In this document: positions 11,521 through 25,304 of the stretch, piece after piece | Numbering within the stretch: position 1 is the first letter of the stretch | Layout: each line of letters opens with the position of its first letter | Assembly: GCA_036389275.1 (NCBI GenBank) | Contig: DASVQE010000106.1 | Span: 10,178 to 74,177 of the forward strand | From: Thermoanaerobaculia bacterium | GTDB taxonomy: Bacteria > Acidobacteriota > Thermoanaerobaculia > Gp7-AA8 | Direction of reading: 5' to 3' | Length of the DNA stretch: 64,000 bases | Made by a program: the position numbers and the translations under genes | Notes under the pieces: generated by a model | The model's database searches: none | Seen by the model: the letters and a program-made list of their open reading frames with translations, nothing else | What the model was told of the DNA's origin: nothing

Positions 11521-11602
11521 TCGGCCATCATGACATAAAGACGCAATTCCGTATATGCCGCAAGACAGCGTTTGTGGAATGGCGTTACGGCGAGTCTGCT
11601 CT

Positions 11603-11631
11603 GAAAACACGAAAGCCGCCCAAGTGGCGGC
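11603..11631 (-). terminator. rho-independent terminator-like hairpin (copy A of repeated tRNA-Asp trailer)
   Basis: On minus strand: GCCGCCACTTGGGCGGC hairpin followed by TTTCGTGTTTTCAG; near-identical to element downstream of intact tRNA-Asp at 25180-25208. Confidence 0.5.
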
Positions 11632-11650
11632 TGATCAGCGCAACGAAATT

Positions 11651-11687
11651 TGGCGGGCCGACGGGGCTCGAACGCGCGACCTCGAGG
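11651..11687 (-). repeat. degenerate copy of tRNA-Asp 3' end (T-arm + acceptor 3' strand + CCA), copy A
   Basis: Minus strand reads GAGGTCGCGCGTTCGAGCCCCGTCGGCCCGCCA vs genuine GGAGGTCGCGGGTTCGAGCCCCGTCGGCCCCGCCA; no matching 5' half, so not a functional tRNA. Confidence 0.5.
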
Positions 11688-11950
11688 TCTAACGGATCAG
11701 GCACGCTCGCAGGCGCGACTTTGGCTGAGCCGCGGAACCGCATAACCAACTCGCTACCAATTCGGCATCGGCTAAGTAGCGCCACGGCTCGCGCGAGGCC
11801 GTCCGCCGGCCATCGCGCTCTAGCAGTAGATCGCCGCAGAGCTCATGGCCGCAGACGTAGCGGCAATCATGGGGCCACCTCCTGATGTTGCGTTCTTGGG
11901 GGTCGGGGATAGGAGCGAAGAAGGGAGAATTGGGAGCGAGAAGTCCATTC

Positions 11951-23482: not shown

Positions 23483-24922
23483 TCATCCTCCGATCAGCCA
23501 GTACTGCTCGTCGGTCTCGGTCCTCGCCTCGCGGAGACCGAACCGATCCTGCGGCGGATGGCCGTGCCGAATCAGCGCGTGCATGTCGGTGAGCACGTCG
23601 CGCGCCGCCGCGACATACCCGTGCCCGAGCATGGTCAGGTCGGCGTTGGTCACGTTGATCGTGTCGATCTCCGGCAGGACCAGCACCGGCGGGATGAGAC
23701 CGGCCCGCGGAAAGTGGTGGAGCCAGCGCGAAGCTTCGACCGCGCGGTCGCGCTCCGAAACGTACAACGTTGTCCGCTGCGCGAGCCGCGTATAGGCGGT
23801 GCTGAGCGAACGGAACGTGTCGGCGTCCACATCGGCCGCCGCGAGGATGAACTGCCCGAAGCGAATGCCGGATCGTTTGTGGGCCGCCGCGGCGATCCGG
23901 TTCACCGCCCGGAGCACTGCGCGATTGCCCATGCTGTGGGCGATCACGTGGACCATGCGTGCGCCGCTCTGCATCGCGAAGTCGGAGAGATAGTCCGCGA
24001 TCGCTCCTTCGCTGGCCTCGATCGTCGCGGCGTCGGCCAGGTAGCCGTCGAGCGTTCCCTGCGAGGGCCAGCTGAAGAACGCCATCGCGCCTTTGACCTG
24101 GAGGTCGAAGCCGATCTGCGCGGCGCGAAGCGCTGCCTCCTCGAAGGAAACGTTGTAGCCGTGCACGAACACCAGCGCGTCCCGTTCCTCAGCGGCGAAC
24201 GCCGCCAAGCGATCACGAATCTGTTTCCAGTGATCCTCCGCCGATGTTGCCGAGATGCCGAGGAGCCGCAGGCGGTCGTCGGACATCGTCAGGAGCCGCT
24301 TCCACCAGCGCGAGCCAATCGAGCCAATCTTGTGGGACTTCGGAATGAACACGCGGCAGGAGCCGTAGTCGACACTGCTTGCGCGCTCGGACGAATACCC
24401 TTTGCTGACATCCTCCGGATAGATCCGCTTGCGGTTCGTGGCGTACGAGACGACGTATTCCGCGCGGTCTCCGGCGGCCGCGGAGCGCGATCTCGTCTCG
24501 CGGCGGCGAGCGAGAAGGGCTTCGTCCGATGGCTCCGGCTGTCCAGACGTAGGAGCGGGTCCAGCGCGTGCCACCGGCTCGCTCGGCACCTCGATTGCCA
24601 TATGGTCCGTGACGGACATCGTGCCCGATGAAGGAAGCGTTCCCACGAAGACCATGGAGGCGAGCTTCGACCCGCGCTGCAACACATCTAGCCGACCGGA
24701 GTACCCCGTTCCAGGCTGGCCTTCTGCCCGCCAATCGATGTGTATGTCCATCGTGTCGCCGCCCGCGAGCGTCAACAGCACCATTCCGGGCGAGTCGAAC
24801 CGGTACATACCCATCTGCGCGTCCGGTCGGTGAACGGATACAGTTGCTGTTACGCTCGCCGGAGGCTCGGCCGTGAACGTCACCTCCAGCGGGAGATTCC
24901 GATCTGCAAGGACACGCATCAT
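23483..24922 (-). CDS. alpha/beta hydrolase (DUF900/PF05990-like) with ~220-aa N-terminal domain of unknown function
   Basis: ALVFVHGYNVSFEEAALRAAQ and VIAHSMGNRAVL (nucleophile elbow) typical of DUF900 hydrolases; N-terminal region without recognisable motifs; lies just after tRNA-Asp terminator on same strand. Confidence 0.65.
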   Translation of the reverse strand: MMRVLADRNLPLEVTFTAEPPASVTATVSVHRPDAQMGMYRFDSPGMVLLTLAGGDTMDIHIDWRAEGQPGTGYSGRLDVLQRGSKLASMVFVGTLPSSGTMSVTDHMAIEVPSEPVARAGPAPTSGQPEPSDEALLARRRETRSRSAAAGDRAEYVVSYATNRKRIYPEDVSKGYSSERASSVDYGSCRVFIPKSHKIGSIGSRWWKRLLTMSDDRLRLLGISATSAEDHWKQIRDRLAAFAAEERDALVFVHGYNVSFEEAALRAAQIGFDLQVKGAMAFFSWPSQGTLDGYLADAATIEASEGAIADYLSDFAMQSGARMVHVIAHSMGNRAVLRAVNRIAAAAHKRSGIRFGQFILAAADVDADTFRSLSTAYTRLAQRTTLYVSERDRAVEASRWLHHFPRAGLIPPVLVLPEIDTINVTNADLTMLGHGYVAAARDVLTDMHALIRHGHPPQDRFGLREARTETDEQYWLIGG

Positions 24923-25179
24923 TCAAGGGTAGCGGGTCCGGCCAGTCGCTGGAAGTCCTGAGCGCCGTCGTGCTAGGACCGGGTATGGTCGTAGGCAGCC
25001 GTGGCGCCGTTCAGCGAGCGGAGGGAGCTCGGCGTTGTAACAGGTTTTCCCGTGGAACATCGACGCAGAAGCGCGCAACATTTTGCAATTCTGGTCGCGG
25101 GTCTGCGGCAAAATTCGCTCGCGGAAATCGCGACCTTGCGAGTGAGCTTGCGAGACACAACTTTCTAAGCCAACCCACT

Positions 25180-25208
25180 GAAAACACGAAAGCCGCCGAA
25201 GTGGCGGC
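25180..25208 (-). terminator. rho-independent terminator of tRNA-Asp
   Basis: Minus strand GCCGCCACTTCGGCGGC hairpin followed by TTTCGTGTTTTC immediately 3' of tRNA. Confidence 0.55.
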
Positions 25209-25227
25209 TGATCAGCGCAACGAAATT

Positions 25228-25304
25228 TGGCGGGGCCGACGGGGCTCGAACCCGCGACCTCCGGCGTGACAGGCCGGCGTTCTAACCAACTGAACTACGA
25301 CCCC
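25228..25304 (-). tRNA. tRNA-Asp (anticodon GTC), 77 nt with encoded CCA
   Basis: Minus strand GGGGTCGTAGTTCAGTTGGTTAGAACGCCGGCCTGTCACGCCGGAGGTCGCGGGTTCGAGCCCCGTCGGCCCCGCCA folds as cloverleaf (7-bp acceptor with one GU, D-arm, anticodon loop CTGTCAC, T-loop TTCGAGC); closely resembles E. coli tRNA-Asp. Confidence 0.9.

Follow-up and report, generated by a model that had tools for sequence, protein, structure and literature searches.

Integrons have an adjacent intI gene, an attI site, a Pc promoter and folded attC sites, and dif modules have XerC/D sites; the integron cassettes and Xer dif modules themselves are tiny, mostly single-gene and recombinase-less, carrying a conserved site for a recombinase that is encoded elsewhere. 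Cis-mobilizable elements (CIMEs), as in the ICESt1 family of Streptococcus, keep attL and attR without integration or transfer genes and stand one behind another where a target gene has its 3' end, separated by att copies; they are decayed integrative and conjugative or integrative and mobilizable elements, usually found beside a functional relative, and are thought to move together with a neighbour or by means of its integrase (PMC5704250). The ssrA islands of Dehalococcoides are also tandem, bounded by a 20-bp repeat of the tmRNA 3' end, and carry strain-specific cargo; 15 of them lack an integration module and have been read as CIME-like, and 16 have a serine-recombinase module next to attL (PMC3146451). 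Tycheposons of Prochlorococcus integrate at tRNA genes, where successive insertions displace older ones into the island and leave partial tRNAs and degenerate remnants, and their cargo includes genes of defence and niche type (10.1101/2020.12.28.424599). Here we describe an island of 13.7 kb at the tRNA-Asp(GTC) gene of a Thermoanaerobaculia bacterium (Acidobacteriota), contained in a 64-kb stretch of DNA that was analysed in full (the window). We read the segment at 11.6-25.3 kb, with a probability of about 0.6, as a tandem array of three small, attachment-site (att)-flanked cargo modules that accreted at tRNA-Asp by recombination. Gene calls and the sequence beyond the window were taken from the source contig Ga0334925_000034 (JGI 3300034173); a contig of an ENA assembly is 100% identical to the window over the 21.2 kb that we fetched.

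The island is bounded by the intact tRNA gene (copy D) and a distal partial copy (A), with two further partial copies (C and B) between them. The recurring unit consists of a tRNA-like part, a spacer, a terminator and a block of short repeats, and is ~250-290 nt long; the block is ~130 nt long and follows D, C and B but is missing from copy A. Its parts in the window are as follows.

25228-25304, minus strand: intact tRNA-Asp(GTC), copy D, proximal island end (ARAGORN; Rfam tRNA, 71 bits; synteny).
25170-25227, minus strand: spacer (H type) and hairpin terminator of D, stem at 25209-25191 (terminator scan).
25049-25180, minus strand: block after D, X type (nhmmer, 4e-32; alignments).
19984-20095, minus strand: copy C, decayed partial tRNA-Asp with Y-type spacer and degraded hairpin (nhmmer, 4e-19; alignments).
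19862-19992, minus strand: block after C, X type, 71% identical to the block of D (nhmmer, 2e-30).
15608-15713, minus strand: copy B, tRNA-like from the D-loop to the 3' end, with Y-type spacer and terminator (nhmmer, 1e-26).
15477-15601, minus strand: block after B, Z type, matching the subtype of L003, L085 and L101 (nhmmer, 3e-23).
11598-11690, minus strand: copy A, last ~34 nt of tRNA-Asp with H-type spacer and terminator, distal island end (nhmmer, 1e-13).

Two tRNA genes of the window were called by ARAGORN, both on the minus strand: tRNA-Asp(GTC), 25228-25304, and tRNA-Val, 28778-28852. Rfam agreed on the tRNA-Asp that an initial annotation of this DNA had placed there. To locate copies we used a profile that starts at tRNA position 28, runs through the terminator and was built from 34 copies in other genomes. 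It matched the window exactly four times, always on the minus strand (B, 15703-15608, 1e-26; D, 25277-25170, 1e-25; C, 20080-19984, 4e-19; A, 11683-11598, 1e-13), and the next match had an E value of 1.9. A 31-nt pattern from the tRNA 3' end, allowed up to three mismatches, matched the window twice and 100 shuffled versions not at all. These searches bear out the three additional same-orientation copies of the 3' end and hairpin that had been read from the sequence, with coordinates that were correct within a few bases. No additional copy or block was found by the profile search in the window beyond copy A.

D and A are identical at 56 of 57 nt in the spacer and terminator and at 32 of 35 nt in the tRNA part, or 96% over ~92 nt overall, as close as had been claimed; the tRNA part of A has one mismatch and one deletion. 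Alignments likewise upheld the distinct spacer of B and C, which have a common 'AATCTAA' type that resembles the spacers of other species and not those of the same genome. Copy B is near-intact over tRNA positions 28-77, carries the signature TAGCCCTCC and has a broken D-stem, and copy C begins at about tRNA position 21, its anticodon loop and T arm containing indels. A terminator rule is satisfied by the hairpins of D, A and B; that of C is degraded. Two points of the initial annotation were altered by these comparisons. The repeat is indeed built on the tRNA 3' end and terminator, but D, C and B run on into the block, so its extent had been drawn too short; and the proposed nesting [D[C..B]A] agrees with the pairing of spacers (D with A, B with C) but is just one of several orders that fit the data. 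Two independent Logan assemblies (L212 and L213) both break at the first base of the copy A spacer; strain heterogeneity was rejected as the cause, as A and D are identical over 30 nt, which accounts for the break at k=31.

The X-type block of D contains the direct repeats CTCGCAAG..ACTCGCAAGGTCGC and ATGTTGC..ATGTTCCACGG, and the Z-type block of B contains CGCACAAGGT repeats, GAATAAC and GAATGTTCCACGCGAACG. Blocks also occur in other genomes, again 3' of tRNA-Asp copies, and the subtypes of the window are common to distant genomes. A block profile gave 42 matches in the fetched loci; all have the orientation of the tRNA, and nearly all lie immediately after a copy and its terminator. Conservation is concentrated in two repeat pairs, each in direct orientation: C[GA]CAAGGT, present twice at a period of 13 bp, and AATGTTYCAC, also present twice. 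The stretch between the pairs distinguishes subtypes X, X2 and Z, and direct repeats of 13 bp (CACTCATTggaaCACTCAAT) are found again in a fourth subtype, W. Outside the tRNA part, most units are 50-77% identical to one another. A structured RNA was rejected, as RNAalifold on 20 instances gave no conserved pairs and Rfam recognized the tRNA alone. A general role as promoter or leader of the cargo was rejected on orientation: the first gene 3' of the block points the same way in 12 cases and the other way in 11. From the absence of conserved pairs and Rfam matches and from the mixed orientation, we read the block as candidate protein-binding DNA, neither RNA nor cargo promoter. In the window, all three blocks lie 200-440 nt before a co-oriented gene. 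Two short open reading frames (ORFs) with a low GC content at third codon positions (GC3) lie between block and cargo gene, at 19486-19824 (minus strand, 112 aa) and 15287-15511 (minus strand, 74 aa); neither matched any family, and the latter, which overlaps the block, is probably spurious. A sigma-70-like promoter match is found at 19802-19775 on the minus strand.

The junction of copy B proved to be widespread. Positions 23-26 of its tRNA-Asp part read CCCT instead of AACG, which breaks the D-stem, and the copy is therefore not a functional tRNA. Searching with the 27-nt pattern TAGCCCYCCGGCCTGTCACGCCGGAGG (TAGCCCYCC...), we found B-type junctions at 67 sites in 64 stretches of soil and rhizosphere metagenomes. 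On the 5' side of the junction, the sites have unrelated DNA as far as the D-loop, giving the unit a sharp left edge at the D-loop/anticodon stem across the family. The tRNA-like part is the best conserved piece of the unit, and most sites that keep the tRNA 3' end run on into spacer, hairpin and often block. Arrays of two to four copies are common among the metagenomic loci. Among 30 complete, non-redundant modules the median length was 3.1 kb (range 0.34-6.8 kb); 13 of the 30 contain one ORF, three contain none, and cassette orientation is mixed across the family. Pfam was used for a census of 96 mid-sized and 39 large ORFs from these loci. The commonest domain was TIR_2 (4 + 7 ORFs), often together with AAA_16, TPR or WD40, and M4 peptidases, AbiEii-like ATPases and a kinase-DUF4365 protein were also found.

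Individual loci show variants of this plan. Some CCCT copies among L139, L134, L105, L115, L136, L102, L089 and L092 are full-length tRNA mimics that keep the 5' half with a broken D-stem, and many CCCT copies are cut in the T arm or acceptor and then pass into unrelated DNA. At L131 (10565-10905; the same as L085), 340 nt separate an intact tRNA-Asp from a CCCT copy and block, which may be either an 'empty' module or two back-to-back units. At L094 (13349-13819 in oriented coordinates), a PIN-like (VapC-type) ORF lies directly 3' of a W-type block.

Comparison of all flanks with one another showed that most pairs of loci have the block alone in common. Some pairs have a common left cargo end and unrelated right neighbours: L107/L119 (86% over 213 nt; block X versus W), L110/L121 (97%), L113/L143 and L114/L144. 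Others have the right side in common and not the left: L102/L135 (86% over 447 nt) and L094/L130. Homologous cargo ends are thus reassorted to different neighbours across the unit. In L107/L119 the switch falls between the anticodon arm and the spacer, a position compatible with crossover inside the tRNA-like part.

The same tRNA-Asp has received other insertions in related genomes. On its tRNA side, L001-L004, L027, L062 and L069 are syntenic with the window (tRNA-Val, response regulator, ACT protein, AI-2E and rmlC), and 3' of tRNA-Asp related Thermoanaerobaculia have no conserved gene content, making this the hypervariable side. In L069, tRNA-Asp is followed by a tyrosine integrase (PF00589) and a 1043-aa VWA-TIR protein, and the tRNA 3' end is repeated over 25 nt at a distance of ~9 kb, ahead of a spacer of native type and a hairpin. 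L069 is thus a textbook integrase-bearing tRNA island; its repeat (T-loop, 25 nt) differs from the CCCT/anticodon-stem unit. L062 has a 2.4-kb insert that encodes an eCIS_core and Lipase_3 protein, lacks an integrase and is homologous to L069 at its right end; it is an integrase-less derivative of the L069-type island. The cargo lies at 11038-12801 in L062 (toxin-like) and at 13115-16246 in L069. L027 has a 2.2-kb one-gene module (CARDB protein) followed, in this order, by a second copy with exactly the junction of B, a block and a TPR-CHAT gene, and L001 has an S8 peptidase and a TPR-CHAT gene at tRNA-Asp. The same gene order in relatives, as an ancestral segmental duplication would predict, was not seen. 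In L034, nucleotides 1-39 of tRNA-Asp, its 5' half, recur without mismatch at 15674-15712, on the opposite strand and 3 kb from the intact gene; this inverted 5' fragment is unlike all of the 3' copies.

Native DNA adjoins the island on both sides, as marked by two genes.

25323-25907, minus strand: rmlC (dTDP-4-dehydrorhamnose 3,5-epimerase), native flank 5' of tRNA-Asp (Pfam, 1e-67; synteny in relatives).
10318-11520, minus strand: Lipase_3 gene, native flank adjoining copy A (ortholog of the last gene of the polyprenyl-synthase operon in L214/L215).

The lipase is 70-73% identical to its L214/L215 orthologs and its operon neighbours are 62-82% identical to theirs; the operon next to copy A is vertically inherited, and both island borders abut native DNA. 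Island genes have a GC3 of 0.73-0.81 versus 0.82-0.93 in most flanking genes, so that the composition check suggested earlier also set the island apart. The operon of L214 (3759-11209) and L215 (3869-11215) comprises a polyprenyl synthase, four ORFs, an 850-aa DAO/OmpA protein and the lipase. Relative to this order, window positions 8970-11520 have the lipase inverted and a NUDIX gene (8970-9569) and a fatty acid hydroxylase gene (9548-10333) inserted, and the rearrangement sits directly at the distal island border. In L215 a MazE/PIN pair lies 3' of the lipase (11350-11977). An AI-2E gene one gene past the lipase in L214 was considered as a sign of a near-empty site and rejected, and is taken as a paralog; it has no tblastn match at E 1e-8 to the AI-2E gene of the window, which flanks the other (tRNA) side of the island. 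Elsewhere in the native part of the window are two genes for large Ser/Thr kinases, PDZ-GAF-Pkinase and Pkinase-PD40 (29148-32204, plus strand; 47678-50332, minus strand), and two T2SSE/MshEN ATPases, all unrelated to the island. A 106-aa ORF with a GIY-YIG/T5orf172 nuclease domain (53235-53555, plus strand) lies between a T2SSE ATPase gene and DUF2891.

The island carries four cargo genes.

23483-24808, minus strand: module 3, gene 1, DUF900 alpha/beta hydrolase of 441 aa as called by JGI, longest ORF to 24922 (PF05990, 4e-42).
20197-23469, plus strand: module 3, gene 2, CpXC zinc-ribbon, TPR and CHAT protein of 1090 aa, ORF from 20143 (CHAT, 8e-28; CpXC, 7e-7).
15894-19418, minus strand: module 2, TPR and CHAT protein of 1174 aa as called by JGI, ORF reaching 19448 (CHAT, 1e-72; TPR_12, 1e-34).
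11951-15277, minus strand: module 1, 1108-aa alpha-solenoid (TPR/Sel1-like) protein with a C-terminal domain of the aminoglycoside phosphotransferase (APH)/eukaryotic-like kinase (ELK) fold, as supported by AlphaFold2 (AF2) and Foldseek.

For the two CHAT proteins and the DUF900 hydrolase, Pfam agreed with the domains assigned in the initial annotation. Close relatives of the island proteins are few. The best non-self homolog of the module-2 protein is 34% identical; a match of its ORF to P0005 is the source contig itself and reveals no strain polymorphism. The kinase assignment to the module-1 protein was recovered through structure prediction and not through sequence searches. Pfam gave a weak Sel1 match only, and the kinase domain was missed by Pfam (including APH), NCBIfam, phmmer against PDB and profile searches. 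In the AlphaFold model an alpha-solenoid (approximately residues 120-775) is joined to a C-terminal alpha/beta domain, which folded alone with four homologs at an AF2 predicted TM score (pTM) of 0.81. Its best Foldseek matches were the maltose kinase MaK, APH(3')-Ia, APH(2''), aminopropanol kinase and FN3K (probability 1.00, E values 2e-6 to 1e-4, TM 0.35-0.50). Three motifs are invariant in five homologs: the Lys of LIVKE, KDAHAENW (DxHxEN) and DLE. The bilobal fold, catalytic Lys, D-x-x-x-x-N loop and metal-binding Asp of an APH-fold enzyme are all present in the model, which supports an APH or eukaryotic-like kinase fold.

Only four homologs of the module-1 protein were found, at unrelated loci; they have dnaE, gyrB or mfd as neighbours and lack a tRNA copy in the vicinity. 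Travel of this gene with the unit was considered and was not borne out in L081-L083, where homologs at 75% and 55% identity have neither a tRNA copy nor a block. On the contig of JGI 3300041966 that holds P0001, a 95%-identical homolog is followed by dnaE in place of copy A and the lipase, and a 4-kb stretch without called genes precedes it. The earlier proposal of effector-like or anti-phage cargo is in keeping with the CHAT, kinase and DUF900 domains and with the prevalence of TIR across the family. In a defence-system search, PADLOC reported BovA weakly (E 5e-6), in the CHAT region of the CpXC-TPR-CHAT protein only, and nothing for the other three island proteins; a significant match to a known anti-phage system was not obtained. 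No ortholog of the cargo occurs at this position in relatives. Judged by their sequences, the cargo genes appear to encode large, fast-diverging conflict-type proteins with a putative role in defence or as effectors.

We searched for a recombinase that might serve the array. No integrase, transposase or resolvase domain was detected with Pfam in the GC3-supported ORFs of the window, tblastn and phmmer of the window with the L069 integrase were negative, and the Pfam gene tables list no recombinase in the ~17 kb of source contig past the window ends (81 kb in total), in agreement with the initial reading that no integrase is present. No relaxase, transfer or recombinase gene is encoded in any island module according to Pfam, and no regulator gene was found to travel with the modules. 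For the metagenomic loci, phmmer and a motif screen of 2255 six-frame ORFs revealed no integrase. ORFs of ~400 aa near module ends were considered as integrases and rejected by Pfam; they encode a kinase-DUF4365 protein, an AAA ATPase, M4 and reprolysin-like peptidases and an FGE-sulfatase, and some have no assignment. A phmmer match of the L069 integrase in L094/L095 (E 0.036) was rejected as an out-of-frame, low-complexity translation. No recombinase family with at least two members stood among the top 25 families listed in the census, in which a single weak integrase could escape notice. The CCCT signature had no match in IMG/VR, and 60 generic tRNA-Asp matches all lacked the block. A viral or proviral carrier is unsupported, the lone block-pattern match (L148) being unconfirmed by the profile, and neither the metagenomic nor the viral data searched yielded an autonomous element that has the block or the CCCT/anticodon-stem unit.

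In the accretion model that we favour as the simplest account, which is known from tRNA and tmRNA islands and has precedents in tycheposons, ssrA islands and CIMEs, the three modules would have joined tRNA-Asp one by one, or as a composite. Each circular module would carry an attP composed of a tRNA look-alike that covers the 3' part from the D-loop or anticodon stem onward, a spacer, its own terminator and an arm-like block, with the anticodon stem-loop as the inverted-repeat core. Integration would rebuild the tRNA and displace the earlier junction outward; D (the intact tRNA), C, B and A would be the scars of these junctions, and the terminator of the unit would ensure that transcription of the rebuilt gene ends properly. 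The block is most likely bound by a recombinase or an accessory protein, as attP arm sites are. The modules would be CIME-like and, having no recombinase of their own, would be mobilized by an enzyme encoded elsewhere and supplied in trans, or would now be fixed. We infer a site-specific mechanism, with crossover in the tRNA-like part and protein binding to the block. The model explains the co-orientation of the copies, the intact proximal tRNA, the terminator in each unit, the presence of the block at D, C and B and not at A, the family-wide junction and the sharp left edge, which is expected of an attP core that uses the anticodon stem-loop. The footprint of repeated integration at a tRNA 3' end, already suspected in the initial annotation, is supported by the syntenic tRNA side, the hypervariable downstream side and the other inserts in relatives, as well as by the 67 junction sites with unrelated cargo, the reassortment and the native operon that copy A abuts.

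Several observations weigh against this model. No empty site was found, and among the genomes in reach the two native flanks are never juxtaposed; no excised circle was observed. Recombinases were absent from 424 kb around the metagenomic units, bringing the total sampled sequence without one to ~0.5 Mb. A fixed crossover in the tRNA predicts that the spacer of D stems from the newest element and that of A from the host, and 56 of 57 nt are nevertheless identical between them; this spacer was found in no other locus among those compared. Truncations, at scattered positions, affect about 40% of copies, and the opposite side of the core has no conserved arm. Across the family, spacer/hairpin type and block type vary independently of each other, a sign of recombination within the unit. 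The points that do not match would also be accounted for by gene conversion acting on D and A or by a second site of crossover beyond the terminator. RecA-type exchange, alone or alongside site-specific recombination, is a possibility to which we give limited weight. Taken as a full explanation, the units, at 100-290 nt, would serve as portable homology, and cassettes would be looped out and in by RecA or swapped after uptake of DNA. This would suit the absence of an integrase near 70+ units, the mosaic units with unlinked hairpin and block types, the scattered truncation and break points and the 96% identity of D and A over ~92 nt with a genome-unique spacer, as Campbell-type integration of a circle with a segment from the host itself would leave. 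It would leave unexplained the sharp family-wide left edge with its conserved, non-tRNA CCCT and the paired block repeats that are conserved across subtypes; moreover, 50-77% identity outside the tRNA part is low for efficient RecA exchange between species, and tRNA-Asp is demonstrably used by an integrase-bearing island (L069). We consider such cassettes unlikely as the sole account.

The units might instead control expression, with terminator and block insulating or regulating potentially toxic cargo, the tRNA part as a scar and the modules immobile. Strong terminators kept at D, B and A, paired direct repeats that resemble operator sites, and the placement of every block of the window ahead of a co-oriented gene lend some colour to this explanation. 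The balanced orientation across the family (12 versus 11) speaks against it, as do the sharp edge and superior conservation of the tRNA-like part, the reassortment of cargo at the unit and the lack of an accompanying regulator gene, and we regard it as improbable. Least credible of all, and largely refuted by the junction found at other sites and the reassortment of cargo, is a purely local history, in which the tRNA 3' part and terminator were duplicated in situ and decayed, with unrelated genes between them and no mobile modules. It would accommodate co-oriented copies within 14 kb, the near-identity of D and A and the lack of a recombinase, but not the recurrence of the B junction and its non-tRNA signature at 67 sites elsewhere with different flanks, the resemblance of the B and C spacers to those of other species or the block subtypes common to distant genomes. 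The cargo, with its lower GC3 and no orthologs at this place in relatives, also argues against it, and the metagenomic sites are not one locus in near-identical strains, as their flanks are unrelated.

Acidobacteriota are among the most abundant soil bacteria, and their gene exchange is nearly uncharted. The locus and its 60+ metagenomic relatives point to a recurrent exchange route: tiny modules that lack a recombinase and bring a long, conserved attachment unit accumulate in tandem at tRNA-Asp and are reassorted from genome to genome, and TIR, CHAT, STAND-like and toxin-like proteins prevail in their cargo. A bolder and tentative extension, which we hold to be rather doubtful, is a tRNA-anchored, integron-like system of soil Acidobacteriota in which an unlinked, possibly host-domesticated recombinase captures immune or effector cassettes of one to three genes at tRNA-Asp and shuffles them by means of a ~290-nt unit with a deliberately non-functional tRNA-Asp mimic, a terminator and a repeat block; the array would then be a programmable store of conflict genes and not a graveyard of islands. 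If a trans-acting recombinase were found, the system would represent a form of cassette capture parallel to integrons and built on a tRNA gene, and the TAGCCCYCC pseudo-tRNA with its block would be a handle for mining immune and effector genes from soil. If there is no such recombinase, the locus would still document well, for a new phylum, how elements accrete and decay at a tRNA hotspot.

Measured against classical tRNA islands, the locus has the intact tRNA and 3' repeats, the synteny break, the native flanks and the atypical composition, and lacks the integrase gene inside the island. It recalls integron cassettes and dif modules in its arrays of tiny, recombinase-less modules with a conserved site; it differs from integrons in that rmlC, and not an integrase gene, precedes the array, orientation is mixed, the site is tRNA-like and the block has no conserved structure. 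In its cargo it recalls Borvo (BovA) and the CHAT, TIR and STAND defence proteins, with CHAT in the island and TIR with AAA_16 and TPR/WD40 across the family, but the PADLOC match to BovA is weak and confined to one CHAT region. Like tycheposons, it consists of cargo elements at a tRNA gene with partial tRNAs left inside the island; tycheposons, however, have their own tyrosine recombinase and replication genes, neither of which is present here, and differ in phylum and habitat. With the ssrA islands it has in common the tandem arrangement behind a single-copy RNA gene, direct repeats of the 3' end and extra conserved sequence around the repeat, whereas here the gene is tRNA-Asp, ~190 nt of flank are repeated along with 34-60 nt of tRNA, and no module for integration was seen. 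In organization the locus resembles CIMEs: the modules are bounded by copies of the unit and have no recombinase, relaxase or transfer gene. Unlike CIMEs, they had no autonomous relative with this unit in the ~0.5 Mb searched, are only 0.3-6.8 kb long, often with one gene, and carry a ~290-nt unit that includes a terminator and a repeat block. The locus belongs to a known kind, arrays in which att-flanked modules without a recombinase have accreted in tandem; what sets it apart is the absence of a local recombinase over ~0.5 Mb of sampled sequence, the very small size of the modules, the composite unit of 250-290 nt and the conflict-type cargo in an understudied phylum.

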